64,000 nt of DNA from Candidatus Saccharimonadales bacterium (GTDB lineage Bacteria > Patescibacteriota > Saccharimonadia > Saccharimonadales > UBA4665). The stretch covers positions 1,563 through 65,562 of the forward strand of contig DASVXH010000083.1 of the NCBI GenBank assembly GCA_036392795.1, in the 5' to 3' direction. The position numbers were made by a program, and so were the translations under genes. The notes under the pieces were generated by a model. That model worked only from the letters and a program-made list of their open reading frames with translations. It was not told where the DNA came from and searched no databases. This document shows positions 2,753-26,414 of this stretch, piece by piece (within the stretch, counting starts at the first letter, position 1; the number at the start of each line of letters is the position of its first letter).

Positions 2753-3931
2753 ATGGCAGACACATTTGACCGTAGCAAGCCGCACGTTAACGTTGGTACC
2801 ATGGGCCACGTTGACCACGGTAAGACTACTCTGACCGCAGCAATTACTGCTGTGCTCGCTAAAAAGCTTCCAAGCGCAACTAACAAGCCGATCGCTTACG
2901 ATCAGATCGACAACGCTCCCGAAGAGCGTCAGCGTGGTATTACCATTGCTACCTCTCACCAGGAATACGAATCAGAAAAGCGCCACTACGCGCACGTCGA
3001 CATGCCTGGTCACGCCGACTACGTCAAGAACATGATTACCGGTGCTGCTCAGGTTGATGGTGCCATCCTCGTGGTGTCTGCCGCCGATGGTCCTATGCCT
3101 CAAACCCGCGAGCACGTTCTGCTTGCCAAGCAGGTGGGTGTGCCAAAGATCGTGGTCTTCCTCAACAAGATGGACCTTGCCGACGCAGACCTCGTGGACC
3201 TCATCGAAGAAGAAATCAAGGAACTGCTCGAAAAGAACGGTTTCGATGCAAACTGTCCTATTATCCGCGGTTCTGCCGCCAAGGCTCTCGAAGGCGACGC
3301 TGCCAACGAAGACGCTATCATGGAACTCGTTAAGGCTATGGACGACTACATTCCAGAACCACAGCGCGACCTTGACAAGCCATTCCTAATGCCAATCGAA
3401 GACGTATTCTCGATCAAGGGTCGTGGTACCGTTGCCACTGGTCGTATCGAACAAGGTGTCGTAAAGATTAACGACGAAGTTGAAATCGTTGGTATCCGCG
3501 ACAGCCGCAAGTCTGTTGTAACCGGCATCGAAGCTTTCAAGAAGAATCTTGACCAGGGTCAAGCTGGCGACAACGCCGGTATCCTGCTCCGCGGCATCGA
3601 GCGCGACGACATCGAGCGTGGTCAGGTTATTGCCAAGCCAGGTTCTGTGACTCCTCACACCGAGTTCGAGGCAGAGGTGTACATCCTTTCCAAAGAAGAA
3701 GGTGGTCGTCACACACCATTCTTCCCCGGTTACAAGCCACAGTTCTACTTCCGCACCACCGACGTTACCGGTGAAGTGAAATTTGACAAGGAAATGATCA
3801 TGCCAGGTGACACCGTTACCTTCAAGGTTACTCTCCTTGCCCCTATCGCCATGGACGAAGGTCTACGCTTCGCTATCCGCGAAGGTGGCCGCACCGTTGG
3901 TGCTGGTGTTGTTACCAAGATCGTTAAATAA
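2753..3931 (+). CDS. tuf: Elongation factor Tu
   Basis: 392 aa with [18 protein letters not shown] and NKMD GTPase motifs. AAGGAG lies upstream. Confidence 0.98.
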
Positions 3932-3950
3932 TCGATCTAAATACAACATT

Positions 3951-3986
3951 AAAAGAGCGCTGGGATATCCGGCGCTCTTTGTTTTT
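3951..3986 (+). terminator. Rho-independent terminator after tuf
   Basis: AGAGCGC (3954-3960) / GCGCTCT (3972-3978) hairpin followed by a T-rich tract. Confidence 0.75.
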
Positions 3987-4028: not shown

Positions 4029-7000
4029 ATGCCAACCCCAGAGTCACCCCCGTTTTCGCATGAACGTATTCCTACGCATGAACGCATCAATATAACACCG
4101 GATGCCATTTCGTATTTAGAGAAGGTCGATGTTTACGATCCATCAGCTCCAGCGACCCAGCTATTACGACGCTATGTCGGCGAGGAATCGCATAAGGATC
4201 CGAACACCCCGATTCCAGTAGTTTATTTGGTCAAGGCAAAAGGCATCGGAGGCTACACTGTAGGTGATGCGATATTTATTCACGACGGTATCTTTGATAG
4301 TTTAAAATATGCCGAGGAATGCAGGGCATTGCTGGAGCATGAAAAGGACCACTATAAGCAAGGCGAGACTTGTGAAATCGCACCTAGCACACTTAAAAAG
4401 ATCATTGGAGCGGGCAGGGTAGCGGAAATCGAAGCTGATATCCGGGGCTTAAAGGCACTGGACGAAAACGGCATAAATCCGCTTGGCATGATCAGTCTGA
4501 CAGAAAGAGCGGTAGAGCAGGAAGCGCAAGAGTCGCCTAGTAAGGGGCCACATATTGAATCGGAAGTTCACGGCGGCATGCTTGAGCGAAAGGTAATGCT
4601 TGAGCAGGTGCTGACCGTGATGGATGTCAAGCATCTGTCACCCGGTATGGAGCCCCTGGAAAGACCTGAGTTGGGAAAGTTGGTCAAGTTGGATGACGAA
4701 GCGTTTTGGAGTTTGGCGCCAACCCTTCAGCAGGCACAACTAAACCGGGTTATAAATCGGGATCACCCTAGCCAACGTCATATCGATATTCAAAAGCGAA
4801 TTCTGGAAAGTATTGCCGATCAGCCCGAAGACGAACAGTCTTTGCGGGCGAAATCAGAGCTTATGCATCGGAAATATACTGAATCACTACAGGACTACGA
4901 CATTGATCAACTGACCCGCGACCTGCAAATACTACAGTCGCAAAATGTCAGAGCCCTTATGCCCAGGCTCAAGCGGAGGAGGGCTATCGAATCTGCAACG
5001 CTACCCCATTTGCGTAGGGCAATCCTGGACTCATCAGATAACCATGAAGATTTGATACGGTTAGCTGACCTGATAAAGGAGACTGCCGCTGCAGAGGCTC
5101 GGTTTATAGGCCAGGCACACTCGCCCTTATTCATAAGGATGCCTTTGAATCAACTTCTTAAAGATGTCGACTTCAGCAAACTCTCTACAGCTCAGAGCGA
5201 CTCGCTGGCCCGAAAACTAATCTATTATGGAAGCCAGGTCGGCTATTATGAATCATATCTGAGCAGCGACAAACCAAAAGATGAGCACAGCATGGAGGTG
5301 CCGGATACTGCGCGGAATCATTTCCTTTTACGAGTCATTCGGGAAATTGATGCCCGGATAATTGCCGACATCCAAGCGCAGCCCGCAGGGCTAGATAAAC
5401 TCCACTATCTGACAAAGAGGTTTCCGGGCGAAGCTGGAGATATGCTTGCCCATATAGGCACTAATCTTCTAAACCCGCAGATAGTTGGCAATACGCTGCA
5501 TAACGGAATTACTGATGTCATTCGAAAAATGCCGCCAGGCAAACTTTTTAATAATTTTATAAATAAGGTACGATCGGGCGACGTAGATGACATGCGCGAG
5601 CTAGCATCACTCGTTCTGGCACAGATAGAAACAAACCTAACGCAAGGACGTAAGGACAGGGCCTTGACTACAAAACAGCTCAAAGCTTACTTGCCGTTTA
5701 TTCTACTCGCCTATGGCGGCGACGAAGGGCCTTCTGAACCATACGTAATCACCTCCGTGGAGGAAATTGTCTTTGACACCCGGGATGCGATAGCCAATTA
5801 TGCAAAACGCTTAAAGATAGTTATCGAAGGTGCGGCCAAGCTGCAGCAAGAGTACCCGGACATACCATGGCAGGATCCGAGCGTCGAGATTCGCCAAAGC
5901 AGGCAATTAACTGGTACGCTGCTGCGGGACGCACTCAAGACATATCAAGCCGACCAAGAGGAAGGCATTGCAAAGCTTATAGCACTTATGCAGCATTATT
6001 CCGTACCCCGTCTAGAACAAGATGTTGCAATATATAAAAGCAATCAATCTTACTTGGACGTCGTTAAGATCTGGCGTAATATGGCTGAATCCTTAATATC
6101 CCGGCCCGACCTGGAGACGGATGAAAACGCTCTACTAACACTGGCTGCTTTAGGCATGTCGGCTCCTGAGGTTGAGCTGAATCTAACGGTTGCCGACTAT
6201 GCCTTTAACCAGGTAGCGCGGCTTCGCGATTTTGAGGGCGGATTACGTTTGTTGCAGGAATTTCCCAATGCCCGCACTGTGCATCGCTCGATATTGGAGG
6301 TTTTGATTGAAGAAAAAGCGCATACTCCTGCAGAGTTCGAGCAACTGAATGGCATCATAGAAACATTATACATAGATACATTAGCCGATAACTACGGGCT
6401 GATAAGCGCCGCCAGCCTAGCCGACAGTATTGCTATTCCGGTCTATAGTCACCACGAAAATATCGAAAGAGACGTCGCCCTTCGGACTGATGTCATCGAA
6501 GGAATGGAGAGTTCCGATCTCTTGGCAGGTTTGCTCAGTAGCGGCCAAGACGACACCAGGCTAAAACGTTATCTGGCAGGCAGGTGGTGGTTGGAAAAAA
6601 GAGCAGGACTACGATCAGGACTACGGGCGGGGCTACGAGCATGGGACGATGATGGGCAGGATATTCAGGACCACTTCAAGATAGAAAACTTCATTGTGTA
6701 TCGAGGTCCCAATAAACGCGCCCATTTACAGCATTGGATTGAGAATGACTATCCAGAGGCCGGCTCTTACGCCCCCTTCGATGACAGCCTGGGCGGCATA
6801 TATCTGTTGACCGATCCGGCTCGCTTTTTTGCCGTTCGCAAGCTGCTATTGCAAAAACCTGACGGTGTTCTTATGAACGAGCAGGGCGGCCGCGACCTGG
6901 TTGACTCCCTGATGAATTCCTGGCTTTCTGCCGAGCGGGACACCGAGGAGGGTGAAATTCTTCGTGAGCTGTTACATGAATTGGTGACAAAAAATGATGC

Positions 7001-8531
7001 GGGAACCGCATATCTACATATCGGCCCCATGCTGCAGGATATGATTTTAAAACCGCCAAAATCTTTCTCTGATCTACGACCGATTACTGACAGCATTGCA
7101 GACAGTGCGGTAGACGCTATGGTGGCGCGCGGACGATTACGGAATCCTACTCCACAAGATTATGATGCGGTACGCCGTCGGGTCGCTAAGCTTTTTGAGG
7201 GCGATAGCAAAGGAAAAGCTCGCGACAGCATACAAGAAGTCAAGGTTCGTATATTGCAAAGAATCGGCGCCGAAGACAGCGTTTCGTCCGCGACCAAACT
7301 AAGCACGTTGGCCTTCGCCGCTCTCGCCGGCAAAAAAGCGGGCGGAATCGGAGTAAAAATGTTGCAGCTGGCCGGACAATATTTTGAGCTGTCAGAGGAA
7401 GACCGTACGGAATTTGAAGACGTGTACGATGACATGAAGGGTCAGACGCGTCTTCAGGCGTATATCACCCTTAAGCGCGAGGCGGCACAAAATCCGGCAA
7501 CTGCCGAGCTGCTTGATAATATTAAATCGTTTGGCGGCCGCATTGGCGGCGGTTCGTTATTTACCGTGTATAAAGTTCATCTAAAAGACGGCCGAGAGAT
7601 GGCACTGGGCGTTAAGAATCCTAATGCCGAATTCAGGGTGCGCCGTCTGGTCGAATTTGCATCTACGGGTATTCAGGGGACAAGCGAGAAACATCCTAAA
7701 AACACGACATTACAACTTATGTCGTCGCTAATGGACGATGCCGTGCAGTGGGTGGCAAATGAGCTGGACGATCCCGAATTTCCTCAGAAGGACGCGGTTT
7801 ACGCTCAGGAAAACGACACGATTCGCGGTAAGGGCTTTAAAAAAGGCAAAACCAGGTACGATGTCATTACCCCAAAAACCATGGAAACTGGCACGTCGTG
7901 GGTGCGCTGTGAAGAGTTTATTGGCGGCACTAACCTGAATAGCTTGCATATTACCGAGGACGGTCAGACCAACATCCCCTCCGGTGTTATTAGTCGCAGC
8001 GACTACAAAGAAGCCGCCTCCGTACTGGTACGCAACTATGTGCATCAGGTTATGTCCGGCAGCTATGCACATTCGGATGTGCATCCGGGACAATTCCGTA
8101 TAACCGAGGACAATACGCGCATCGCTATCTTTGATCGCCGCAACCTTTTGCCAGTACACCCAAAACTTCGCAGCACTTTGCGTACAGCCTTTAGCGCCTT
8201 GATGGATGATGACGTTAGCGCAGCAGCGCTGGCAATTGCCATGCACGGCGCCCCCGCCGACACCGACCCTGATAAACTGGCTGCAACGATACGTGATATT
8301 TCTCAAAAGACCCAAGAACCCGCTCGGCTGGTGGCCGACACGATTCTAGCCTTGAAGCGCGCGGGCATAAAGGTACCTCTGGATCTCAGTCTTATGCTGC
8401 GCAATTTTATGAGCGTCAACGAATTTAGCAAAAAAGCCGGCTTTGACAACCTGGCCGAGGCGTTTTTGCATACCTCTTCCGGAATGGATGAACTACTTCG
8501 TCTGGCGCAGACAGATGAGACTGTGATATAA
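4029..8531 (+). CDS. 1500-aa multidomain protein: N-terminal HExxH zinc-peptidase-like module, long helical middle, C-terminal UbiB/ABC1 atypical-kinase-like domain
   Basis: Uninterrupted 4.5-kb ORF. HEKDH at nt 4338-4352, with EIEAD about 30 aa downstream. Kinase-like motifs: LQLAGQ, GGGSLFTVYKVHLKDGREMALGVKNPN (about nt 7545-7625), HSDVHPGQF (8069-8095) and IAIFDRR. No signal peptide. Confidence 0.85.
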   Translation: MPTPESPPFSHERIPTHERINITPDAISYLEKVDVYDPSAPATQLLRRYVGEESHKDPNTPIPVVYLVKAKGIGGYTVGDAIFIHDGIFDSLKYAEECRALLEHEKDHYKQGETCEIAPSTLKKIIGAGRVAEIEADIRGLKALDENGINPLGMISLTERAVEQEAQESPSKGPHIESEVHGGMLERKVMLEQVLTVMDVKHLSPGMEPLERPELGKLVKLDDEAFWSLAPTLQQAQLNRVINRDHPSQRHIDIQKRILESIADQPEDEQSLRAKSELMHRKYTESLQDYDIDQLTRDLQILQSQNVRALMPRLKRRRAIESATLPHLRRAILDSSDNHEDLIRLADLIKETAAAEARFIGQAHSPLFIRMPLNQLLKDVDFSKLSTAQSDSLARKLIYYGSQVGYYESYLSSDKPKDEHSMEVPDTARNHFLLRVIREIDARIIADIQAQPAGLDKLHYLTKRFPGEAGDMLAHIGTNLLNPQIVGNTLHNGITDVIRKMPPGKLFNNFINKVRSGDVDDMRELASLVLAQIETNLTQGRKDRALTTKQLKAYLPFILLAYGGDEGPSEPYVITSVEEIVFDTRDAIANYAKRLKIVIEGAAKLQQEYPDIPWQDPSVEIRQSRQLTGTLLRDALKTYQADQEEGIAKLIALMQHYSVPRLEQDVAIYKSNQSYLDVVKIWRNMAESLISRPDLETDENALLTLAALGMSAPEVELNLTVADYAFNQVARLRDFEGGLRLLQEFPNARTVHRSILEVLIEEKAHTPAEFEQLNGIIETLYIDTLADNYGLISAASLADSIAIPVYSHHENIERDVALRTDVIEGMESSDLLAGLLSSGQDDTRLKRYLAGRWWLEKRAGLRSGLRAGLRAWDDDGQDIQDHFKIENFIVYRGPNKRAHLQHWIENDYPEAGSYAPFDDSLGGIYLLTDPARFFAVRKLLLQKPDGVLMNEQGGRDLVDSLMNSWLSAERDTEEGEILRELLHELVTKNDAGTAYLHIGPMLQDMILKPPKSFSDLRPITDSIADSAVDAMVARGRLRNPTPQDYDAVRRRVAKLFEGDSKGKARDSIQEVKVRILQRIGAEDSVSSATKLSTLAFAALAGKKAGGIGVKMLQLAGQYFELSEEDRTEFEDVYDDMKGQTRLQAYITLKREAAQNPATAELLDNIKSFGGRIGGGSLFTVYKVHLKDGREMALGVKNPNAEFRVRRLVEFASTGIQGTSEKHPKNTTLQLMSSLMDDAVQWVANELDDPEFPQKDAVYAQENDTIRGKGFKKGKTRYDVITPKTMETGTSWVRCEEFIGGTNLNSLHITEDGQTNIPSGVISRSDYKEAASVLVRNYVHQVMSGSYAHSDVHPGQFRITEDNTRIAIFDRRNLLPVHPKLRSTLRTAFSALMDDDVSAAALAIAMHGAPADTDPDKLAATIRDISQKTQEPARLVADTILALKRAGIKVPLDLSLMLRNFMSVNEFSKKAGFDNLAEAFLHTSSGMDELLRLAQTDETVI
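6606..6641 (+). repeat. Imperfect 3 x 12-nt tandem repeat inside the 1500-aa gene
   Basis: ggactacgatca / ggactacgggcg / gggctacgagca, encoding GLRS-GLRA-GLRA. Confidence 0.6.
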
Positions 8532-8616: not shown

Positions 8617-8943
8617 ATGGTAGAACCAAAAAAAGATCAGAAGCAGCGTATTCGGATTCGCCTGAAGGCCTACGACCACAAGGTCATCGACCAGGCCGCA
8701 AAGCAGATTGTTGACACTGCTCTGCGCACGGGCGCCACCATCGCTGGCCCCATCCCACTGCCTACTGACCGCAGCACTTTTACGGTCATCAAGGCTCCTC
8801 ATGTTTACAAAAAAGGTCGTGAACAGTTTGAAATGCGGGTTCACAAACGTCTTATCGACGTGACCGAGCCGACGCCAAAGACGATCGACTCGCTCATGAA
8901 CTTGAGTCTGCCAGCTGGCTGTGACGTTGAAATCAAAATGTAA
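8617..8943 (+). CDS. rpsJ: 30S ribosomal protein S10
   Basis: [41 protein letters not shown] is canonical S10. Confidence 0.97.
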
Positions 8944-8990: not shown

Positions 8991-9557
8991 ATGATACTAC
9001 GAGAATACGAAGTCCAAGTTGATAGGGAAGATGCAACCGTCCGGAGGGCTGCAGCTAATTTAGTTACTCCCACAGTAGAGCTTTTGCTTGCGCATGAATT
9101 ACCAGCCGATCTCACGCTCGCCTGTACGCCGCGGGAAACTGGTGTGCGCGATGGGCTGCGTCACCCACGAGCCGGCAGGACCCCGGAGTTCACGGCGATG
9201 CAAACCGATGACGATGAGTATACGATTTCGGCTGCCTTGCCATTTGATGTGTCACGAATGGGCGCGGGAATCAATGTCGTAAAATACTGCCTTACCCTTC
9301 CGCCAAATGGAAGATTCGGCGGAGTGATAGCCATAGATAGTCCCGTTAAGCGTATATTTGAACTTACACCCATGGACCCGCGGCGGCAGGACATGAAGCA
9401 GCGGCTCTCTGCCAGCGCAGCCGTTAATGGGTTGGCACTGTCACTAAACGCACTACAGGCAGGCAAGGGGATTAACGGCTTTAGGACCAATTTTGAACCT
9501 AATCTTTTGCACCGCGGACCCTCTATTGTGCCGATGCCCCGTAGTCGAACCAATTAA
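8991..9557 (+). CDS. Hypothetical protein, 188 aa
   Basis: Long ORF with plausible composition. The antisense ORF 9161-9553 looks less protein-like. No Shine-Dalgarno sequence; the ATG lies about 8 nt after the terminator. Confidence 0.45.
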   Translation: MILREYEVQVDREDATVRRAAANLVTPTVELLLAHELPADLTLACTPRETGVRDGLRHPRAGRTPEFTAMQTDDDEYTISAALPFDVSRMGAGINVVKYCLTLPPNGRFGGVIAIDSPVKRIFELTPMDPRRQDMKQRLSASAAVNGLALSLNALQAGKGINGFRTNFEPNLLHRGPSIVPMPRSRTN

Positions 9558-9600: not shown

Positions 9601-9882
9601 ATGGCAAAAATCAAAACCAAAAAACGTGCCGCCCGTACCAGTGATTCTTTTGATGGCGTCTATCTGTTCAAGATGGTTTTATATCTGTTACTGGGATCAA
9701 TGTGGGTCAAAATTAGCCATGGGGACTGGCTGCAGCTACCTATTCCGGTGGGACTAATAATCGGTCTGATTTTTGCGACACATGAACACTTTCGTATCGA
9801 CCGCAAGATAGAGTATGCGGTCTTGCTTGTAGCCATGCTATTCGGCTACTTTGCGCCGTACGGCTTGTATATCAATTTTTAG
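9601..9882 (+). CDS. Small membrane protein, 93 aa, about 3 TM helices
   Basis: Basic N-terminus (KIKTKKRAAR) followed by hydrophobic segments. Confidence 0.5.
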   Translation: MAKIKTKKRAARTSDSFDGVYLFKMVLYLLLGSMWVKISHGDWLQLPIPVGLIIGLIFATHEHFRIDRKIEYAVLLVAMLFGYFAPYGLYINF

Positions 9883-11236
9883 GACCGTCGAAGTCTTTAT
9901 AGCTGGACAATTGCGTTTCGCCAATGTGCCACAGAACGGTTTCGCCCTTTGGCCGACCGCCGATCAAATCAACCTGCTTGCTTTTGACTACCAGCCCGCC
10001 ACGGATCGTTCGGAACGGCTTAGCGGTGCAATAAGAACTCCACCCAAGATTTTGTCTTACGATCATATGCAGGACGTCAAGTATCTCTACTAGTTCCTGA
10101 TGCGATGTCGCGCCCTGTACAACGCGCAGTGCCTGTTTCGTGCGGTCATCCGTAATCTGACCAAGCAGTCTGACGGCTTGTTCATGATCCAGCTTGGGGC
10201 ATCTACCCGGGGCCATGGCCATACTTAGCAACTTTTCCGCACTCGCGATTTCCTGTTCGGTTAGCGCTCCAAGTCTTCTGGATCTTGCCAAGTCTTTATC
10301 GACCCCAAACGGGTAAATACACCTTACAACCGCTGGGTCGTATGGCTCGTCGGGCGGGAGTGGAACCAGGTGAATTGTCAGCGGTTCAGGGTTGACATCA
10401 ATCAGGCTGCCGGCACGCCGGTTACGAATTACACCCATTCCAAACAGTAATTTTCGGACGATTTGCTCAACGGGTGCCGCCAGTATATGACAGGTATTTT
10501 CAAAGATCTGGCTTTCTTTATCTGTAAAAAGCATTCTTTCGGCAATGGTCATTGATCTCCATGTCTCCAGATACAAGTCTTTGTGGCCCAGGACAGTCTT
10601 GGGATGTTGAGCAACCAATTGCATAACCCTGGTGGCAAGAATCGATTCAGGACTATCCAAGTCAAGAGAAAATTGTTTGCCATCAAATTCGATAAGCACA
10701 TGGTCGACGGTGGCTAGCTGTGTCTTTTCTTGTTCTTGTTCATAGAGGGCGTTTTTCTTGTACATAAGTTTTTCGCCCCCGGCCGCATCTACTCGGCACT
10801 TAAAATCTGCTAGCTCTTCTGCGGTTGCGTGCCGCTCGGCTAATGCGATACGTCCAAAACCAATATGGGACTTACCGTCGGGTGATTCAGTTTTTACGAC
10901 AGCGGAGACAAGTTCTGGCACGAGAGCTTGAATACGTAAGCCGTACGCAACCAGTTGGCCCGCATGTCTAGAAGGCTTATCCTCTGCCTGCGTAAGGTCG
11001 ACCAAATCCTGGCAGATATGATCGCCCGGTCCAGCCGTTAGGTAAAGTTCGCTCATCCGGGCCATATATGTTGACGACTGGTCTACGCCCCGCATTTCAA
11101 CGATACGACCATCTGACGCCAAGGCGGTATGTCCACGAAGATGCCACTGATTAATCTCAGGGACATTTGTTATCAACGTTGCATCTGATTCAAGAATTTC
11201 GTGGCGAGGTAAATGATGAGATAACATGGGAGTCAT
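9872..11236 (-). CDS. Hypothetical protein, 454 aa
   Basis: Clean 1.36-kb ORF antisense to the ribosomal operon direction. No motif recognised. Confidence 0.7.
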   Translation of the reverse strand: MTPMLSHHLPRHEILESDATLITNVPEINQWHLRGHTALASDGRIVEMRGVDQSSTYMARMSELYLTAGPGDHICQDLVDLTQAEDKPSRHAGQLVAYGLRIQALVPELVSAVVKTESPDGKSHIGFGRIALAERHATAEELADFKCRVDAAGGEKLMYKKNALYEQEQEKTQLATVDHVLIEFDGKQFSLDLDSPESILATRVMQLVAQHPKTVLGHKDLYLETWRSMTIAERMLFTDKESQIFENTCHILAAPVEQIVRKLLFGMGVIRNRRAGSLIDVNPEPLTIHLVPLPPDEPYDPAVVRCIYPFGVDKDLARSRRLGALTEQEIASAEKLLSMAMAPGRCPKLDHEQAVRLLGQITDDRTKQALRVVQGATSHQELVEILDVLHMIVRQNLGWSSYCTAKPFRTIRGGLVVKSKQVDLIGGRPKGETVLWHIGETQLSSYKDFDGPKN

Positions 11237-11324: not shown

Positions 11325-11915
11325 TTGGCTGATATGCCTGTAAATACCGAAGCGAGTAGGTTTTATGCCTACCATGTTGAATTTTGCCCTGAAGATCCTG
11401 CGCACTGTATAAACCCTGTACTTTTAGGCAGGGCCAGTATGGAGCTGCTTGACTCCTATAATGCCGACTTCCGATTCAATTCGACGAGACCAGTGGACCC
11501 TTTGCGGCTACCCGACGTCGACACGCGCAATGTGAAAGAAAAAATTACTGCCGAGCGAAGTTTTGATGGCTGGCTATTTGATATAGAATTTGCAGAAAAT
11601 CGAACATTGAAGTTTTTAGACGACTATCCGAATTCTATGATGAGTAAACTACAGTTCATGGTGCCAAAATGCGGAGTCGTAGCGACTGATATGGTATGCA
11701 AGAGATTGCTTCTTGAGGGGCATAATGCTCCGCGAATCCCATTACCTGCGCGACCGAAGCGAGGTTTTTTATCCATTCCAAAGCAAATCGACAAGCGTCG
11801 ATTTATAGGTGGTAATTATTCCGCGCAGCTAGCACTTACGCTTATTCGGCAAACATTGGATCGCAACCATGCCCAAAAATCCGGCACCAAAGTCGTCAAA
11901 GATCTTATTGGCTAG
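11325..11915 (+). CDS. Hypothetical protein, 196 aa
   Basis: ORF with GGAG 9 nt upstream of TTG 11325 (alternative ATG at 11334). No motif recognised. Confidence 0.6.
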   Translation: MADMPVNTEASRFYAYHVEFCPEDPAHCINPVLLGRASMELLDSYNADFRFNSTRPVDPLRLPDVDTRNVKEKITAERSFDGWLFDIEFAENRTLKFLDDYPNSMMSKLQFMVPKCGVVATDMVCKRLLLEGHNAPRIPLPARPKRGFLSIPKQIDKRRFIGGNYSAQLALTLIRQTLDRNHAQKSGTKVVKDLIG

Positions 11916-19751: not shown

Positions 19752-20480
19752 ATGGCTGAAAATACAACAGCCCCAGCACAAGCCGCCGCTGAAGCAGCAG
19801 CTGCTGCACAGCACCAGGGTCAAGGTCACGGTGGCCGTGGTCCTCGTGGCGGTCAAGGTCGGCCCGGTGGCCGTCGTGACGGTCGCCGTCCAGATGTTGC
19901 ACCAGAAGAAAAACAATTTGATGAACGCGTACTGCACATTGACCGTGTGGCCCGCGTCGTAAAGGGTGGTCGCCGCTTCCGTTTCCGTGCACTCGTCGTG
20001 GTTGGTGACCGCAAAAATCGCGTTGGTATCGGTATTGCTAAAGGCGCAGATGTTACCGCTGCCGTTTCCAAGGCTACTGAAGTCGCCAAGAAGCATTTTG
20101 TTACCGTCAGCACCGACAAAAATGGTTCGATTCATCACGAATACGAAGCTAAAGTTGGTGGTGCACGCATCCTCATCAAGCCAGCCAGCGCTGGTACCGG
20201 TCTGATCGCCGGTGGCGTGGTCCGCACTATTTTGGAAGTAGCCGGCATCAAGAATATCTTGAGCAAGTCATTGGGCTCTACCAATAAGGCAAACACTGCC
20301 TACGCAACCATCGAAGCATTGCGTAGCATTGTACCCGCCGACAAATGGGTAACGGCTGCTGCTCTAAAAGCCGCCAAAAACGAAAGGGCCAAGGCGCCCA
20401 AGGCAGAGGCAAAGAGCGAAAAGCCTGTCGTTGCCAAGACTGCTCCAAAAAAGGTCGCCGCTAAAAAGGAGGCCAAATAA
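19752..20480 (+). CDS. rpsE: 30S ribosomal protein S5, with long low-complexity N- and C-terminal extensions (242 aa)
   Basis: Core IDRVARVVKGGRRFRFRALVVVGD. N-terminal Ala/Gly/Arg-rich stretch of about 55 aa and C-terminal K/A-rich stretch of about 45 aa. Confidence 0.95.
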   Translation: MAENTTAPAQAAAEAAAAAQHQGQGHGGRGPRGGQGRPGGRRDGRRPDVAPEEKQFDERVLHIDRVARVVKGGRRFRFRALVVVGDRKNRVGIGIAKGADVTAAVSKATEVAKKHFVTVSTDKNGSIHHEYEAKVGGARILIKPASAGTGLIAGGVVRTILEVAGIKNILSKSLGSTNKANTAYATIEALRSIVPADKWVTAAALKAAKNERAKAPKAEAKSEKPVVAKTAPKKVAAKKEAK

Positions 20481-20950
20481 TGAAATATCACGAACTACAG
20501 GTTTCCAGCAGTAAAAGTGCCAAGCGTGTTGGTCGCGGTATTGCCGCCGGCCAAGGCAAGACCGCCGGTCGTGGTACTAAAGGCCAGATGGCCCGTACTG
20601 GTGCTAAGCGTAAGCCAGGCTTCGAAGGTGGCCAAAATCCTTTGATGCAACGCTTGCCTAAGCTGCCTGGATTTAAATCCAAGCGCGTGCCCGCCGAGGT
20701 CGTCTACACGGGTCAGCTGGACAGCGTATCCGCAAAGACTATCGATGCAGCCGCATTGGCCGAAGCCGGCCTGATTAGCAGTGCCTACGTTGTAGTCAAG
20801 TTGCTAGTAAAGGGTGATGTCACCAAAAAGCACAGTGTAAAATTGCAATCAGCCTCGGCCGCTGCAATCGAAGCTGTTCAAAAAGCTGGTGGCGAGTTCG
20901 AAAAAGTTGCCCGTAGCCCTCGACCCGCAACCCGCAAAAAAGAAGATTAG
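20480..20950 (+). CDS. rplO: 50S ribosomal protein L15
   Basis: GRGIAAGQGKTAGRGTKGQ motif. Starts at the TAATG overlap with rpsE, so no rpmD lies between them. Confidence 0.95.
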   Translation: MKYHELQVSSSKSAKRVGRGIAAGQGKTAGRGTKGQMARTGAKRKPGFEGGQNPLMQRLPKLPGFKSKRVPAEVVYTGQLDSVSAKTIDAAALAEAGLISSAYVVVKLLVKGDVTKKHSVKLQSASAAAIEAVQKAGGEFEKVARSPRPATRKKED

Positions 20951-21033: not shown

Positions 21034-21564
21034 ATGCGTTACCCTGACTCAGAAACTATTGTCTTTGATGAGCCCGTCAAAAGGGCGCGAGGCGGTGCCG
21101 AAATCAAAATAGACGAGCAGCGCGTTATTTTTCGGGCGGGCATCGCCAGAAAAGCAGATATCGTATTGACGCACCCGGCACCCTTCGTTCGGGTCTTTCA
21201 TGGCATCGGCGCAAAGGCGATGCTAGACCTGCGATCAGAGGTGGGCTGGGCGGAAGTACACGATATGGACAGTCGGTCTTACCTGCGAATGGGAGCGGGC
21301 GCAGTCAGTCTTTCGGGGGAAATCGAGCGAGGCAGCGAGCTTGTCCACGCAGCCGAATTCTATAGGGCCAAAGACATAAAGGGACTACAGCATCTAAACG
21401 TCACATTTAAGAGTTACGCCGGATCCCCTGATTATCGTGCACGTGGTCTTGATAGCGAGCCTATATACAAGCCCAATGAAAACGGCGTCATAGACTTTAC
21501 GGCTCTCTGGGATCAAGGTATTCGACCCGACACCTTCTATCTGCCACAGCGTCTAGATATATAA
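21034..21564 (+). CDS. Hypothetical protein, 176 aa
   Basis: ORF with ATG 7 nt after a TATAAT box (21021-21026) and no Shine-Dalgarno sequence. No motif recognised. Confidence 0.55.
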   Translation: MRYPDSETIVFDEPVKRARGGAEIKIDEQRVIFRAGIARKADIVLTHPAPFVRVFHGIGAKAMLDLRSEVGWAEVHDMDSRSYLRMGAGAVSLSGEIERGSELVHAAEFYRAKDIKGLQHLNVTFKSYAGSPDYRARGLDSEPIYKPNENGVIDFTALWDQGIRPDTFYLPQRLDI

Positions 21565-21683
21565 AAATCCAAAAACAATTAAAAACTTCTTTACAGAACC
21601 ATGATGAATGGTGTACATTTTAGCTGTCCTTATTGGACGTTGTAGACAGCCTCGTAATGCTATAAAAAGCAGTACAGGCAAAA

Positions 21684-21717
21684 ATAGGTACGATCTTCGG
21701 TTGTGCCTATTTTTTTA
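21684..21717 (+). terminator. Rho-independent terminator in the 290-nt spacer before the SGNH gene
   Basis: AUAGGUAC / GUGCCUAU stem (one G-U pair) with a cgatcttcggtt loop, followed by TTTTTTT. Confidence 0.6.
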
Positions 21718-21856
21718 GATACAGTCATACCAGTGGACCCTGTGGTCACTCAAAATCAAAATATAGAAGAGTGTGAGCCCGGCCAATGGCTGTAAATATT
21801 GGCAATGCGTAAGCTTTTTCATAGTCAGTCGCCAATAAACTCTCTAGTGTGGACCT

Positions 21857-22690
21857 ATGAAGAAATTAATATTTTATACCCTATCATCTTTATTGTTTTT
21901 GGTCGGAATTGTAATTGTCGCACCTAAAAATGCCTCAGCTGCAACCAACAATACCTATATGTCTCTTGGCGATTCGGTAGCCGCGGGCGCTGGTTTACCA
22001 TTAAGCAACGGATCACAGGCCGCGCTCTGTGCGAAATCGGGTCAAGCCTATCCATTCAAAGTGGCAGCAGAAACCGGATTGGCTCTTGAGCATCTGGCAT
22101 GTAGCGGCGCAAAGATAACTGATGGGATTTTGCAGTCTCAGGAGCGCAATGGCGTTACCCTTAGTCCGCAGATCGATCGGGCATTTGCAAATGGCACGCC
22201 AAAGCTCATAACCGTAACCGCCGGCACCAATGACATTAATTGGGCAGCCTACATTAACAAATGCTATCAATCGGAATGTGGCACCCTCACCGACACAGCC
22301 ACCTCTAGCTTGCTGATTTGGAAGGTACATCAAAATATGCGAAGCCTTTTGGATCAGATCAAAGCCCGCAATGGTGCCGATAAGCCAAAGGTAGTTGTGA
22401 CTGGTTATTATATGCCGCTTTCCAATGCACAGCCCGCCTGCACCGACACCACGGGCATTACCTCAAAAGAAGTTAACTGGGTCCGACAGCAGGCCACCTT
22501 GCTCAATATCGCCCTAAGTGCGGTGGTTTATCAATACGATTTTGTTAGCTTTGCCCCAGTTAATTTTAATGGCCATGAGCTTTGTTCGGCCGATTCCTGG
22601 ATTCAAGGCCTAGGGGCTCCGGCTTCTTATCATCCCACTGCTGCCGGTCAGAAGGCCATTGCTCAGTCTGTTTTAGATGTTCTTAGATAG
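21857..22690 (+). CDS. Secreted SGNH/GDSL-family hydrolase (esterase/lipase)
   Basis: Signal peptide MKKLIFYTLSSLLFLVGIVIVAPKNASA. Block I SLGDSVAAG, block III TAGTNDI, block V ADSW...YHPT. Confidence 0.8.
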   Translation: MKKLIFYTLSSLLFLVGIVIVAPKNASAATNNTYMSLGDSVAAGAGLPLSNGSQAALCAKSGQAYPFKVAAETGLALEHLACSGAKITDGILQSQERNGVTLSPQIDRAFANGTPKLITVTAGTNDINWAAYINKCYQSECGTLTDTATSSLLIWKVHQNMRSLLDQIKARNGADKPKVVVTGYYMPLSNAQPACTDTTGITSKEVNWVRQQATLLNIALSAVVYQYDFVSFAPVNFNGHELCSADSWIQGLGAPASYHPTAAGQKAIAQSVLDVLR

Positions 22691-22772
22691 TTCGTTACTC
22701 AAACTATTTCTACAGAGCAGATAACCATTACCGCGTTGTTTCATCTTAGTTTAAGTTTTATACTTAAAGAGG

Positions 22773-24125
22773 ATGATTCCGAACATCGAGTTGCCGTTTG
22801 CGTCAAACCCCGACCTTTACGAACCGGAAAAGTTTGCGGCGGAATGTGATAAATTATTTGCCCAAAGACATCAAACCTTTTTTGACACAGTGACGGGACG
22901 CTACGTTCTGTTTCACATGGACGATATCGAGTCCAACATAACGGACCGCGATAGCAGTGACACACTTGACGCCGAAACGTCACCCTTAATTATCGCCGCG
23001 CATATCGTAACTCTTCCGTCGGTCTACACTCTAATGCGCGGTGTCGTGCCGGTGACGGCTAATGCCGAAGGAGAGGTGCACGACCGAGTTCGACGAGCCC
23101 TACAAGCAAATCCCCACGGCTTATCTCCGCATGCGCCAACAATAACAGAACGCTACGGCAAATTGGTGGATGATGCGCTAAAGCCGCTCATTAAAAGCCT
23201 TGGTCATAAGGCTTTGAGTCGTGATGGCAATAAGGTAGACATCGTAAAGGATCTAGCCTCTCCGTTGGCATCGAGCGTAATCGCCCGCATCCAAGGCGCG
23301 TCATGTCATTTCGATGAGCAAATTCAGGCATTTGCCAATGGTCAAACCGATCTGTTGGGGCAGCAGCTTCGCGGAAACAAACTCATAAGTGCCGTTAGGT
23401 CACTAGCTGGTTTGCTGCGATTCAACAATAACCTGGCCAAAGACGCCGAAAAACAACTGATTTTCGAACCCCCTTCAGATCTTACGACCCAATTGGTCAG
23501 TGAATTAGGGCGTAAACTAACACGCAGCGCCGGCATGAACCTTACTGCCGCGGGATACTCCACCACCAGAGGGACGATTGCCAATGCCGTCCGTTTTGCA
23601 CTGGCAGATCCTAGTCGTGAACTTTGGCAGGCACTTTGCCAAAATGAGAACCCCTACCTTCAGGAGGTAGCCCTGTTTGAGGTCGAACGACTCTGTACCG
23701 CATTAGTTGCTTGGAAAGGAAGGCTCAACAAAGACACACTTCTCGCCGATAACGCAACAAAACTGCCCAAAGGCGCGCCCGTTCTATATGCCCTCGGTAT
23801 CGCCAATCGTGATCCGAAAATTTTCGGCTATCCCCACCATGCATTGCTGCAAAGACGCGTCATAGATAGAGAGAGACGAGGCAGGGCACGCCCACACATA
23901 ACGTATGGGCGTGGACCCCACGCCTGTGTGGGGCGAACACTGGCGCAGCTGGAAATCAAAGCCGCATTTACGGCTCTTGGTAATCTCGAGAAAGAGCACG
24001 GTGCGCATTTTATGCTGAATGAACCGGAAACAGGTTTTCAGTACGCTCCAGATTCGCTATTTCGAATGCCCGAAAATCTACCCGTAGTTCTGACCAAGAA
24101 TATCGCCACTGGCGAGGCCATTTAA
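22773..24125 (+). CDS. Cytochrome P450, 450 aa
   Basis: Heme-binding loop YGRGPHACVGRTLA (Cys codon 23925-23927), ExxR (EVER) and an I-helix-like AAGYSTT. AAAGAGG ribosome-binding site. Confidence 0.8.
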   Translation: MIPNIELPFASNPDLYEPEKFAAECDKLFAQRHQTFFDTVTGRYVLFHMDDIESNITDRDSSDTLDAETSPLIIAAHIVTLPSVYTLMRGVVPVTANAEGEVHDRVRRALQANPHGLSPHAPTITERYGKLVDDALKPLIKSLGHKALSRDGNKVDIVKDLASPLASSVIARIQGASCHFDEQIQAFANGQTDLLGQQLRGNKLISAVRSLAGLLRFNNNLAKDAEKQLIFEPPSDLTTQLVSELGRKLTRSAGMNLTAAGYSTTRGTIANAVRFALADPSRELWQALCQNENPYLQEVALFEVERLCTALVAWKGRLNKDTLLADNATKLPKGAPVLYALGIANRDPKIFGYPHHALLQRRVIDRERRGRARPHITYGRGPHACVGRTLAQLEIKAAFTALGNLEKEHGAHFMLNEPETGFQYAPDSLFRMPENLPVVLTKNIATGEAI

Positions 24126-24206
24126 TATTAGTTCGCTTTTAGGGTTACATTCGAGGCTTTATTATGTATACTTAACATGATTAGAGCCTAATGGGGTAAT
24201 AGAGAC

Positions 24207-25700: not shown

Positions 25701-25751
25701 AATCAAACAATTCTACTGCATCACTATTATATAGTTTGCTATGATAAGGGC

Positions 25752-26414
25752 ATGCACAAGCGATTCGGTTTAGCACTTTTTCGTCTAGTAATGGGCGCAA
25801 CTGTAGCAACTGCCATTGTCACGCAATACATGCAAGGTGCCACGCGCGCCACTTTTAATCCAGTTAATTTCTTTAGCTACTTTACGATTGAAAGCAATAT
25901 TTTGGCGGCGTTTATATTTATCGTCACTGGCGCGGCACTGATGACGGGGATAAAACTGCGCCGGCGATCACTAATTCGCGGTGCAGCCGTCCTTTATATG
26001 ACGATTACCGGCATAGTTTACGCCATTTTACTATCCGGCATTGATGCAGATCTTGGGCTAACTATGCCGTGGGTAAATATGGTTCTGCATTATCTAATGC
26101 CGGTCGCAGTCTTGATAGACTGGTTCGCAGATCCGCCCGAGCAAAAAGTACCTTTTAAAAGCGCTCTGATATGGACAATTTTTCCTGCCCTCTATCTCTT
26201 TTACAGCTTAATTCGTGGCTACGGAACGGGCTGGTATCCGTATCCGTTCCTAAATCCCGAACATTCTGGCTACGGAGGCATTATTACGATTTCAATTGGG
26301 ATTTTAGTTGTTTCGATTGGACTTATTTGGGTGATTACCAAGCTTTCCGGAAGGGCAAATAGTAGTCCAACACCAAAGAACAGACTAAAATCCCGTACTC
26401 GCCGCCAAAAATGA
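25752..26414 (+). CDS. Polytopic membrane protein, possibly Pr6Pr family
   Basis: 6 hydrophobic helices; YFTIESNIL, LHYLMPV, YPYPFLNP motifs recalled from the Pr6Pr family. Basic tail. Confidence 0.5.
   Translation: MHKRFGLALFRLVMGATVATAIVTQYMQGATRATFNPVNFFSYFTIESNILAAFIFIVTGAALMTGIKLRRRSLIRGAAVLYMTITGIVYAILLSGIDADLGLTMPWVNMVLHYLMPVAVLIDWFADPPEQKVPFKSALIWTIFPALYLFYSLIRGYGTGWYPYPFLNPEHSGYGGIITISIGILVVSIGLIWVITKLSGRANSSPTPKNRLKSRTRRQK

Follow-up and report, generated by a model that had tools for sequence, protein, structure and literature searches.

A Family of M48 Peptidase–Solenoid–UbiB-Like Fusion Proteins, Viewed from a Candidatus Saccharimonadales Genome: Architecture, Conservation, and Possible ATPase Control

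Is the 1500-residue reading frame that lies between tuf and rpsJ in a Candidatus Saccharimonadales MAG a single real gene, and if so, what could a protein do that has peptidase motifs at one end and those of an atypical kinase at the other? In the 64,000-nucleotide stretch of DNA analyzed here (the window), this open reading frame (ORF, 4029..8531; all features given here are on the + strand) runs from an ATG through 1500 codons to a stop, and is the longest ORF within the first 14 kb. As the earlier note had described, the ORF is intact, and Pfam confirms its flanks, which serve as context only: tuf (EF-Tu, 2753..3931) upstream and rpsJ (ribosomal protein S10, 8617..8943) downstream. Because an intrinsic terminator (3952..3980; 13-pair stem, 7 GC pairs, T-run) separates tuf from the fusion gene, the latter is a separate transcription unit. 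The note had also drawn attention to the tuf–rpsJ position, a junction almost always contiguous in bacteria, but the placement is common only to the window and one sister Saccharibacteria genome, the ribosomal gene cluster of the window genome holds further non-ribosomal insertions, and the position is lineage-specific and incidental, without family-wide meaning. No conserved neighbor gene or operon pointing to a pathway was found for the fusion family.

Nor is the protein a one-off. An exhaustive HMMER search with clustering at 50% identity gave 305 family representatives at E ≤ 1e-30, both domains being present, in the same order, in 129 of the 151 best-scoring ones, and the family profile recovers 1,127 proteins at E ≤ 1e-3 among 1.84 billion. 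The exact protein is present in NCBI, where it is named just “AarF/UbiB family protein”, and its two-domain architecture recurs in over 100 independent assemblies; the fusion ORF is therefore not a product of chance. The family is represented in Patescibacteria, Micrarchaeota, Omnitrophota, Elusimicrobia, and Planctomycetes (including Planctomycetia, on large contigs), and some members form part of giant proteins (3,000 to over 6,800 aa) that retain the two-domain spacing and also carry a helicase, a methyltransferase, or further kinase domains. Five GTDB representative genomes encode the halves as two ORFs that adjoin or overlap each other; barring frameshift errors in these genomes, the domains need not be covalently linked. 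In agreement with the earlier note, we found no paper describing an M48–UbiB fusion, and the family, whose hundreds of members are soluble proteins of about 1,500 residues, is apparently undescribed before.

The N-terminal domain (aa ~30–220, 4116..4688) is an M48-type zinc-metallopeptidase domain. Pfam M48 remains sub-threshold on the window protein itself (15.1 bits vs a cut-off of 20.3), but the assignment is secured by its relatives (59–61 bits), by matches of the family profiles to the M48 structures 3c37 (1.8e-23), BepA (4e-16), and MJ1213 in the PDB, and by an AF2 model of aa 1–720 (pLDDT 82.5) for which Foldseek gives BepA as the best match and also returns 3c37. The HEKDH motif is exactly where it had been reported (4338..4352, H104-E105-K-D-H108) and would supply two zinc ligands and the catalytic Glu; among the 119 full-length family representatives on which residue conservation was computed, H104 and H108 are conserved in 100% and E105 in 98%. 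The ExxAD motif that had been placed about 30 aa further on is indeed present (E133-I-E-A136-D137, 4425..4439), although it starts 25 aa past HEKDH, with an intervening segment of 24 residues; E133, the putative third zinc ligand, and D137 are both 100% conserved and correspond to E201 and D205 in the NEQEAD of BepA. R130 is conserved in at least 97% of the family, and the M48 NAFA motif reads GGYT in the fusion protein. Further downstream, H181-G-x4-R187 (4569..4589) aligns with BepA LTHPLPES..R (H246...R252), with H181, G182, and R187 each 99% conserved. In BepA, the His of this HPx4R plug is a fourth Zn ligand stabilized by the D205–R252 pair, a feature described as M48-wide (PMC13655028). 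Judged by its motifs, the N-terminus holds every element of an M48 zinc-peptidase core: HExxH, ExxAD, and an HPx4R-type plug (here HGx4R).

Between the two terminal domains lies an all-α solenoid (aa ~225–1085, 4701..7283) that AF2 models as helical throughout, and for which Foldseek returns weak HEAT/ARM/TPR-like matches at most. This linker has a median length of 881 aa across 129 members (5–95%, 781–959), and is poorly conserved at aa 350–700 and better conserved at aa 700–1010. The helical middle with a GLRx tandem repeat is thus as originally noted: GLRS-GLRA-GLRA (aa 860–871, 6606..6641) is made of three 12-nt units at the DNA level. The repeat lies in a low-confidence loop (pLDDT < 50 at model residues 163–172) that is an insertion relative to the relatives P0002 and P0003, and the loop is lineage-specific and predicted to be disordered.

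The C-terminal domain (aa ~1090–1480, 7296..8468) is a UbiB/ABC1 (COQ8-like) atypical kinase/ATPase domain that includes the N-terminal KxGQ extension. Pfam ABC1 (PF03109) scores 37.5 bits on the fusion protein vs a cut-off of 22.9 (52–60 bits on relatives), alignment with E. coli UbiB by hhalign reaches a probability of 97.4%, and the AF2 model of aa 701–1500 (pLDDT 90.6, pTM 0.87) has its best Foldseek matches in COQ8A (E 2e-9, TMt 0.61–0.69), with MSMEG_1954 and Rv3197 also found. The profile searches that the note had proposed as its check therefore support both terminal domains, as do the fold comparisons. All four UbiB signatures that it had listed are present, two of them in need of adjustment. 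LQLAGQ stands at 1112–1117, but by hhalign the KxGQ equivalent is K1110-M-L-Q1113 (7356..7367; K70 and Q73 of E. coli UbiB) and not L-A-G-Q at 1114–1117; Q1113 is 100% and [RK]1110 99% conserved. The segment GGGSLFTVYKVHLKDGREMALGVKNPN (1173–1199), likened to ASIGQVH...VAVKVQxP, contains a GGGS nucleotide-binding loop (7545..7556, 97–100% conserved) that replaces the UbiB Ala-rich loop and aligns with ASASIAQVH, followed by the β3 strand G1194-V-K1196-N-P-N (7608..7625), in which Gly occupies the canonical Lys position (the lysine of E. coli UbiB VVIKV, K153 by count) and the basic residue has shifted to +2. HSDVHPGQF (1348–1356) and IAIFDRR (1365–1371) were read correctly. The former holds the catalytic loop H1348-S-D1350-V-H-P-G-Q1355 (8070..8093; UbiB HADMHPGN), where D1350 pairs with the UbiB HxD (97% conserved; G1354 100%, N1355 98%), and the latter holds D1369-R1370 (8133..8138; 100% and 98%), whose Asp, the DFG-equivalent metal-binding residue, matches the D in IDCG of UbiB. 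D1134, which pairs with the LQD Asp of E. coli UbiB, is invariant in the family, as are Q1139 and G1175, and the αC acidic residue falls within the 97–100% conserved set.

How far, then, does this architecture narrow the choice of explanations? An assembly or gene-calling artifact fusing two separate genes, the alternative that the note itself had raised, could find some comfort in the five genomes with split halves, yet we give it next to no credence: a single ORF with both domains at constant spacing recurs in 129 independent cluster representatives, GC content across the ORF shows no discontinuity (0.48–0.52), and the intact ortholog of the sister genome aligns over residues 3–1221 in one uninterrupted 1,256-aa HSP. 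We therefore regard a single real gene, with the architecture and family assignment given above, as almost certain. (The gene in the sister MAG contains a contig break.) It is also highly improbable that the protein is a canonical UbiB orthologue of quinone biosynthesis with extra N-terminal domains, despite its NCBI name and its partial matches to Pfam ABC1 and TIGR01982. The equivalog scores are far under their cut-offs (TIGR01982, 36.7 vs 487.55; PRK04750, 11.7 vs 667), identity to solved UbiB-family structures is 12–16%, the C-terminal membrane anchor is absent, and the family profile, at its 1,127 proteins, stays apart from canonical UbiB, itself a very large family; moreover, quinone biosynthesis is generally absent from Saccharibacteria and other CPR lineages. 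A subtler possibility is that the UbiB-like domain is, at least in the window genome, a pseudoenzyme, a nucleotide- or lipid-binding scaffold that forms the regulatory or substrate-binding tail of a large M48 protease, comparable to the TPR of BepA. The low TIGR01982 score fits this reading, as do the GGGS, DR, and NPN that stand for the Ala-rich loop, DFG, and QxPG of UbiB across the family, and, in the window protein, Gly at the canonical β3 Lys and Gln at the Mg-binding Asn. However, the basic β3 residue is at 1194 only in 54 of the 119 members, at 1196 only in 35, at both in 28, and at neither in 2, so that 117 retain it, and the complementary patterns (K-V-L vs G-V-[KR]) indicate that a lysine-like function is selected for. 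Conservation is likewise 97–100% for the catalytic Asp, its DFG-equivalent counterpart, the acidic residue of αC, and the Gln of KxGQ, and the window protein is one of only 2/119 with Gln at 1355, where the sister ortholog keeps Asn. We thus consider a pseudoenzyme quite unlikely, while noting that Gln1355 and the displaced Lys may weaken the ATPase of the window protein in particular.

The remaining alternative is that of an effector, which the note had set beside a cytoplasmic regulator, secreted or injected by symbiotic or predatory ultra-small cells through a non-Sec route (type IV secretion or pilus-associated), with protease and kinase acting on host proteins or lipids. Consistent with this are the enrichment in host-dependent lineages (Saccharibacteria, other Patescibacteria, Micrarchaeota, Omnitrophota, Elusimicrobia), the embedding of the module in giant multidomain proteins, an N-terminal hydrophobic segment in 8/151 members, the contig break within the sister gene, and divergence much faster than that of neighboring genes (43–58% identity to the sister ortholog, vs 96–100% for Tuf, S10, and L3). 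This divergence, however, resembles that of non-housekeeping neighbors (CDP-OH transferase, 42%), and the window protein, as already noted from its sequence, has neither signal peptide nor TM helix (maximum Kyte–Doolittle 19-residue mean 1.23), like ~90% of members. The loci with identifiable neighbors (the window and L002–L008) are chromosomal with mostly housekeeping flanks and no secretion-system genes nearby, the family extends to Planctomycetia with large contigs, and it was not found in IMG/VR viral contigs. Taken together, we find an effector role doubtful, although less so than a pseudoenzyme.

Strong purifying selection on both catalytic centers makes it probable that each domain keeps its activity. 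On balance, the whole is best explained as a new-family M48–solenoid–UbiB fusion, for which an autoinhibited protease under ATPase control is the favored reading; the coupling itself is a tentative proposal. The M48 domain would rest in the autoinhibited state that M48 peptidases typically adopt: the plug His (H-[PG]-x4-R) would serve as fourth zinc ligand, kept in position by the motif Arg and the Asp of ExxAD. The attached solenoid and UbiB module would act as a switch on this domain, such that ATP binding or hydrolysis, possibly triggered by membranes or lipids as for COQ8, frees the plug or brings in substrate. In the UbiB family, cardiolipin membranes activate the ATPase, and water is positioned by the Gln of KxGQ (bioRxiv 10.1101/149823). 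The protein would then be an intracellular, nucleotide-controlled protease serving quality control or processing, in a family spread over many ultra-small symbiotic bacteria and archaea. Weighing against this proposal are the GGYT in place of NAFA, the short HExxH–ExxAD segment, the Gln1355 and displaced β3 Lys of the window protein, the lack of a conserved neighbor gene, the five genomes with split halves, and the chance that the plug His has a catalytic role instead.

Among known systems, the M48 domain matches best, by profile and by fold, to BepA (YfgC), soluble M48 peptidases such as Geobacter 3c37, and minigluzincins (MJ1213). They share with the fusion the catalytic core and the motif order HExxH, ExxAD, G-x-N-P, H-[PG]-x4-R, and are likewise soluble rather than membrane-embedded, with a protease domain followed by a helical-repeat domain. 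BepA, however, is periplasmic and has a signal peptide, carries ~190 residues of TPR in place of a ~880-residue helical part ending in a UbiB domain, and has Pro rather than Gly in the plug. BepA is activated by insertion of its α6 lid at BAM, a mechanism that cannot apply as such here because the 24-residue HExxH–ExxAD segment leaves no α6 lid.

Similarly, the UbiB family (COQ8A/ADCK3, E. coli UbiB, Rv3197/MSMEG_1954, plant ABC1K) shares the protein-kinase-like fold and UbiB-specific KxGQ extension, with the KxGQ Lys/Gln, LQD Asp, αC acidic residue, HxDxHxGN loop, and DFG-equivalent Asp all alignable. The fusion differs in GGGS for the Ala-rich loop, NPN for (Q/R)xPG, and D-R for D-F/C-G, in a β3 Lys that is mobile between two positions, in having no membrane anchor, in the preceding M48–solenoid module, and in its occurrence in lineages for which quinone synthesis is not expected. 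For the relocated lysine there is precedent in WNK kinases, where the catalytic lysine has moved to the glycine-rich loop (β2) with activity kept, which allows a functional reading of G1194/K1196, although the fusion Lys shifts two residues along β3 instead. FtsH and Lon also combine a nucleotide-hydrolyzing module and a protease in one polypeptide, and provide an analogy for an ATP-controlled protease, but their folds are unrelated (AAA+ with M41 or Ser–Lys, vs PKL/UbiB with M48), and as they are hexameric unfoldases the likeness concerns module pairing alone, not oligomerization or unfolding.

Finally, the same two enzyme families meet on lipid droplets: the plastoglobules of Arabidopsis and the cyanoglobules of Synechocystis harbor an M48 peptidase together with ABC1K kinases, and the two are co-expressed, PGM48 with ABC1K7/ABC1K3 (PMC12223511, PMC8956952, bioRxiv 10.1101/2021.02.05.430006). 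These are separate polypeptides of photosynthetic organisms, engaged in prenyl-lipid metabolism, and are likened to the fusion by enzyme family and not by orthology. By this analogy, the fusion would be a “Rosetta-stone” form of the PGM48–ABC1K pairing, whose functional coupling in plants is itself unproven, and suggests that the M48 and UbiB families may be linked in an inherent way, a partnership for which the lipid droplets of plants and cyanobacteria have so far been the only known setting.

The open reading frame at positions 4029-8531 of the forward strand starts with ATG, runs uninterrupted for 1,500 codons, and is the longest ORF within the first 14 kb of the window, lying between the genes for EF-Tu (tuf, 2753-3931) and ribosomal protein S10 (rpsJ, 8617-8943). 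A strong intrinsic terminator with a 13-pair stem (3952-3980) follows tuf, and therefore the gene is not simply read through from its upstream neighbor. NCBI holds an identical protein, on a 65.8-kb contig, as [quoted passage not shown], and this record agrees with the assignment of the DNA to the CPR. We consider it almost certain that the protein belongs to a family in which an N-terminal M48 peptidase domain (here amino acids ~30-220) is joined through an α-helical solenoid to a C-terminal UbiB/ABC1 domain (amino acids ~1090-1480). An earlier note, made from the sequence alone, had called this fusion from motifs, all of which we recover: HEKDH at amino acids 104-108 (nt 4338-4352), EIEAD at 133-137, and LQLAGQ, GGGS..VKNPN, HSDVHPGQF and IAIFDRR in the C-terminal quarter. 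Its statement that the protein lacks a signal peptide and a transmembrane helix is likewise in agreement with our analysis, in which the highest 19-residue Kyte-Doolittle mean is 1.23.

A word-index homology search recovered two relatives only, P0002 and P0003 (1,496 and 1,501 aa), at about 25% identity and with the architecture of the window protein. At thresholds of E ≤ 1e-3, 1e-10 and 1e-30, an exhaustive HMMER search with a profile of amino acids 351-1500 against 1.84 billion cluster representatives yielded 1,127, 453 and 305 proteins, respectively. The UbiB-like module is found in all 151 of the best representatives (median length 1,503 aa), and an M48-like domain, always N-terminal to that module, in 129 of them, with HExxH in 127 of these 129 two-domain members and a median inter-domain envelope distance of 881 residues (5th-95th percentile 781-959). 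The remaining 22 representatives, most of which are short (410-1,320 aa), lack the N-domain and appear to be fragments. The window protein fits the proposed family layout, in which a single ORF encodes first the M48 and then the UbiB domain, with a linker of ~780-960 aa between them. Our searches of open-access papers and bioRxiv turned up neither an account of an M48-UbiB fusion nor one of UbiB-family proteins in Saccharibacteria or other CPR. Both kinds of domain are already known, as is the generic NCBI label of the window protein; what is new is a conserved, widespread and undescribed architecture, with its motif set ([RK]xLQ, GGGS, NPN, D-R and HGx4R) and a relocatable catalytic lysine.

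At the peptidase end, Pfam M48 (PF01435, MEROPS M48) gives the window protein by itself 15.1 bits, under the gathering cut-off of 20.3, and single-sequence phmmer searches of both protein ends against PDB sequences gave chance matches only, so that family profiles were needed. The homologous N-termini of P0002 and P0003 score 58.7 and 60.8 bits, respectively, against the same Pfam model. A three-member family profile matches the PDB entry 3c37 at 8.7e-12 and E. coli BepA at about 5e-6, values that become 1.8e-23 and 4e-16 with a 58-member profile, and the family profile also matches the minigluzincin MJ1213 and HtpX. The AF2 model of amino acids 1-720 (pLDDT 82.5, and >90 across most of amino acids 30-220) has BepA (6ait/6sar) and 3c37 as its top Foldseek PDB matches. 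Taken together, these data uphold the M48 call of the earlier note, with the predicted membership of the window protein holding by transitive and profile evidence and not by a single-sequence cut-off.

The catalytic residues can be followed across 119 full-length representatives. The zinc-binding HExxH motif (H104-E-K-D-H108, conserved at 100/98/100%) aligns with BepA HEISH, and the ExxAD motif that provides the third zinc ligand, Glu (E133-I-E-A-D137, with E and D both at 100%), aligns with BepA E201...D205; R130 is conserved at 99%. Just 24 residues separate HExxH from ExxAD, and the α6 "lid" of BepA therefore has no counterpart. In the upstream NAFA motif, the window protein deviates from the family consensus, with GGYT. 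A 2026 study describes HPx4R as common to M48 peptidases and as the core of an autoinhibitory plug, in which H246 of BepA is the fourth zinc ligand and is held by R252, itself hydrogen-bonded to D205 of ExxAD (PMC13655028). The counterpart in the fusion family, H181-G-G-M-L-E-R187, pairs with BepA LTHPLPES..R at the same spacing, with H, G and R each at 99%, such that the proline of the plug motif (BepA P247) is replaced by a glycine that is itself 99% conserved. The fusion family thus retains both the zinc-ligand catalytic triad and the entire plug triad (H181, R187 and D137).

The call of a C-terminal ABC1 domain is equally well borne out. Pfam ABC1 (PF03109) scores 37.5 bits (cut-off 22.9) over amino acids 1172-1398, and E. 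coli UbiB aligns with an hhalign probability of 97.4% (E 3.5e-11) and an HMM alignment E of 1.6e-12. The AF2 model of amino acids 701-1500, built with 58 family sequences (pLDDT 90.6, pTM 0.87), finds human COQ8A as its top Foldseek PDB matches (7udp, 5i35 and 4ped; E 2e-9 to 1e-8), followed by mycobacterial MSMEG_1954 and Rv3197, and then by RIO and ordinary protein kinases. The COQ8A matches have target TM-scores of 0.61-0.69 and 415-430 aligned columns over the whole 378-387-residue targets, and therefore include the UbiB-specific N-terminal (KxGQ) extension. The domain nevertheless scores far below the NCBIfam UbiB equivalogs (36.7 bits for TIGR01982, cut-off 487.55, and 11.7 for PRK04750, cut-off 667), and is thus a member of the UbiB/ABC1 family but no orthologue of the quinone-pathway UbiB.

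The alignment to E. coli UbiB also corrects one detail of the earlier note, which had taken LQLAGQ as the KxGQ-like motif: hhalign instead places KxGQ (K70-F-G-Q73 in UbiB) at K1110-M-L-Q1113, where [RK] is conserved at 99%, Q1113 at 100% and the glycine is Leu family-wide, and we reject LAGQ in favor of this site. In COQ8, the KxGQ glutamine has been proposed to position the hydrolytic water, and ATP hydrolysis, which both phenols and cardiolipin membranes stimulate, is the conserved activity (bioRxiv 10.1101/149823). Further along the domain, D1134, the Asp of UbiB LQD, is invariant (100%), and the Ala-rich nucleotide loop of the UbiB family is absent, its position being taken by G-G-G-S (1173-1176, 97-100% conserved). 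E1245 corresponds to the αC Glu of UbiB DELN ([DE] 99%), H-S-D1350-V-H-P-G-Q1355 to UbiB HADMHPGN (D1350 97%, G1354 100%, N1355 98%), and D1369 to the DFG-equivalent Asp of UbiB IDCG (100%). The metal-binding Asn is Gln (Q1355) in the window protein and in 2/119 members overall, with Asn present in the sister-genome ortholog; the change is private and possibly weakening.

The β3 strand of the window protein reads A-L-G-V-K-N-P-N, with Gly (G1194) at the position of the UbiB VVIKV lysine (K153 by count) and a lysine two residues later (K1196). Across the family, these two positions (nt 7608-7616) form a natural lysine-migration series: of the 119 members, 54 are basic at 1194 alone (K-V-[LMV]), 35 at 1196 alone ([GAS]-V-[KR]), 28 at both positions and 2 at neither. 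The displacement is a family-wide alternative and not decay, and the family provides a clean natural experiment in catalytic-lysine relocation. Because strand residues i and i+2 point to one side, we infer that the nucleotide remains within reach of the displaced Lys/Arg.

Between the two terminal domains, both AF2 models are purely α-helical, with only a weak Foldseek likeness to solenoids of the HEAT/ARM/TPR type, among them importins, CRM1 and β-catenin. The length of this long solenoid is fixed, and in the model of amino acids 701-1500 its last 380 residues are packed as a rigid unit against the UbiB domain (pTM 0.87). The GLRx tandem repeat pointed out in the earlier note is present in this region, as GLRS-GLRA-GLRA at amino acids 860-871; we reject it as a functional element, since these 36 nt are an insertion confined to the lineage and located in a disordered loop.

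Scanning GTDB species representatives with sequence patterns, which provides a lower bound only, found at least 23 loci when the patterns were drawn from a 12-sequence subfamily alignment; patterns from the three-sequence alignment found no loci in these representatives, and the 119-sequence alignment was too diverse for patterns. Going by depositors' record titles, which may contain binning errors, the loci are from CPR (Candidatus Saccharibacteria, "Patescibacteria group", Daviesbacteria, Kerfeldbacteria, Gottesmanbacteria and Peribacteria), other bacteria (three Omnitrophota, two Elusimicrobia, two Planctomycetia/Planctomycetales, Nitrospirales and three "uncultured Gammaproteobacteria" MAGs) and archaea (two Micrarchaeota and one unclassified archaeon). 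Inspection of the ORFs showed that the fusion is a single ORF in the CPR classes, in the gammaproteobacterial MAGs and in one of the Micrarchaeota genomes, and that the module is embedded in larger proteins, of at least 5,803 and at least 6,831 aa in the Planctomycetes, at least 3,517 aa in one Elusimicrobia genome and at least 4,300 aa in one Omnitrophota genome. Five GTDB representatives (loci L012, L015, L017, L021 and L029) carry two adjacent or overlapping ORFs, the peptidase half followed by the UbiB half, reflecting either genuine gene splits or frameshift errors.

Seven of the 129 two-domain members exceed 2,000 aa, with the whole M48-solenoid-UbiB unit placed inside a giant protein at unchanged internal spacing, alongside SF1-helicase, TPR, methyltransferase, CheR and APH domains. 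Carriers of 3,000 to >6,800 aa are found at loci L006 (10001-25501, protein P0038), L014, L016, L025 and L026 and as proteins P0079 and P0115; they come from Planctomycetes, Elusimicrobia and Omnitrophota as well as from unassigned metagenome contigs, and their additional domains include SAM-methyltransferase, APH-kinase and tRNA_edit (YbaK-like) domains besides SF1 helicase, TPR and CheR. At L006, the giant fusion is preceded by a β-propeller protein of >3,489 aa. An N-terminal hydrophobic segment (signal peptide or anchor) on an extended N-terminus is seen in a minority of members (P0035, P0050, P0071, P0086, P0102, P0107, P0132 and P0038), and localization may therefore differ between subfamilies.

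The position between tuf and rpsJ, which the earlier note had flagged, is real and is conserved within one lineage. In the sister genome, Candidatus Saccharibacteria CullarsAll.DT.09 (a GTDB representative MAG), the order fusA - chorismate mutase - ... - CDP-alcohol phosphatidyltransferase - DAG-kinase-like - tuf - fusion gene is as in the window; the contig ends within the fusion gene, and a second contig carries its last 265 codons followed by rpsJ - orf93 - rplC. This assembly break (end of L008, start of L013) falls around residues 1221-1229 and may reflect strain-level variation. Between the two genomes, Tuf, S10 and L3 are 96%, 100% and 97% identical, respectively, compared with 43% (amino acids 3-1221) and 58% (amino acids 1229-1493) for the fusion protein and 42-71% for the other inserted genes. 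Elsewhere, the fusion gene has other neighbors (alr and CYTH; RNA ligase and NUDIX; greA and aspS; obg), and an all-against-all comparison of ORFs from 29 loci found no recurrent neighbor except translational GTPases, at four loci, two of them from the same lineage; we therefore reject an operon-based function. The position thus carries no family-wide meaning: it is a lineage quirk of a repeatedly invaded str-S10-spc cluster, with no functional tie to translation. An anti-phage defense system is likewise rejected, with no match of the window protein to PADLOC models at E ≤ 0.01, as is a phage-borne or mobile gene, with no family member found in IMG/VR and no discontinuity in GC.

The other insertions in this cluster include, between fusA and tuf, a type II chorismate mutase (610-930), a CDP-alcohol phosphatidyltransferase (972-1670) and a diacylglycerol-kinase-like lipid kinase (1681-2640), with 71%, 42% and 71% identity, respectively, in L008. 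Between rpsJ and rplC lie ORFs of 188 aa (8991-9557), 93 aa (9601-9882), 453-454 aa (9872-11236, minus strand) and 196 aa (11325-11915), all without a Pfam or PADLOC match, of which only the 93-aa ORF has a match in the sister MAG contig L013 (84% identity). A further stretch (21034-26414) has three genes between rplO (20480-20950) and secY (24207-25700), namely a 176-aa ORF of unknown function, a lipase of the GDSL type (21857-22690) and a cytochrome P450 (22773-24125; PF00067, 38 bits), and secY is followed by a weak, below-cut-off FAR-17a/AIG1-like match (25752-26414). The lipid-related inserts (the phosphatidyltransferase, lipid kinase, lipase, P450 and weak AIG1-like gene) are mildly suggestive, as guilt by association only, because UbiB proteins are lipid-activated. 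We note that a P450 and several lipid-handling genes within a Saccharimonadales ribosomal superoperon are unusual. Farther away, the window encodes a 646-aa GH15 glucoamylase-family protein (40827-42770, minus strand) and an 812-aa protein with DUF6829 (55 bits) and a weak DUF1152 match (61352-63790).

Few protein-kinase-like families are as widespread as UbiB/ABC1/ADCK, whose biochemical output is still debated (ATPase, lipid extraction or protein kinase). To our knowledge, M48 peptidases have been recognized only lately as plug-autoinhibited, and the release signal is known for BepA alone. CPR bacteria and DPANN archaea, in turn, are not expected to make quinones. A fusion that is conserved across hundreds of clusters in such lineages, with a near-constant linker of ~880 residues and both sites under selection, invites the Rosetta-stone argument that the two activities are coupled. 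The family offers a single polypeptide with a complete M48 catalytic and plug apparatus and a complete, if idiosyncratic, UbiB nucleotide site, and the window protein has no export signal. Judging from residue conservation, both putative catalytic domains are probably active in the family. The M48 domain would be plugged at rest, as in BepA, and the signal for release of the plug would most plausibly come from the attached solenoid-UbiB module, because the BepA lid is missing and no partner gene is conserved. Following the precedent of UbiB domains, that module may undergo lipid- or ligand-stimulated ATP hydrolysis, and the protein could act as an intracellular, nucleotide-gated processing or quality-control protease, perhaps at a membrane surface. 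We put forward this specific model of an ATPase-gated protease tentatively, as possible rather than probable.

Of the other explanations, one would make the protein an effector exported by host-dependent cells. The distribution, the divergence of the fusion protein and the giant polyprotein versions would fit such a role, but the absence of export signals, the housekeeping gene surroundings and the presence of the family in Planctomycetes make it unlikely. We give still less credence to a UbiB domain that serves as a pseudoenzyme scaffold, against which stand the complementary Lys pattern at 1194/1196 and the invariant Asp and Gln residues. A canonical UbiB is effectively excluded by the equivalog scores (TIGR01982 and PRK04750) and by the recovery of only 1,127 proteins with the family profile, and we regard it as highly improbable. 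The least credible reading is an assembly artefact joining separate genes, also effectively excluded, as both domains occur at near-constant spacing in 129 of the 151 best representatives and the sister genome aligns over amino acids 3-1221 at 43%.

Returning to the model of an ATPase-gated protease, its boldest form, which we consider rather doubtful, is that of a novel protease class, self-contained and gated by ATP or lipid, in which the UbiB-fold ATPase would sense a membrane lipid or small hydrophobic ligand and mechanically unplug the M48 domain via a rigid α-solenoid lever. If true, gating of this kind would provide the first defined molecular output of a UbiB domain outside quinone metabolism, and the protease would act on membrane or lipid-acquisition proteins in lipid-auxotrophic CPR/DPANN cells. 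The fusion would surprise UbiB and M48 specialists alike and is a tractable system: it is a single soluble polypeptide, in which the coupling of both activities is directly testable. The family is also another of the conserved large "dark" proteins encoded by the genomes of CPR, DPANN and Omnitrophota. In plastoglobules and cyanoglobules, which are lipid droplets, the core components include ABC1K kinases as well as an M48 peptidase, namely PGM48 in Arabidopsis, where it is co-expressed with ABC1K7 and ABC1K3, and sll1280 in Synechocystis (PMC12223511, PMC8956952, bioRxiv 10.1101/2021.02.05.430006). Gating of the peptidase by the UbiB domain would, if true, explain why these peptidases and kinases travel together on such particles, and their pairing there is an independent echo of the pairing in the fusion.
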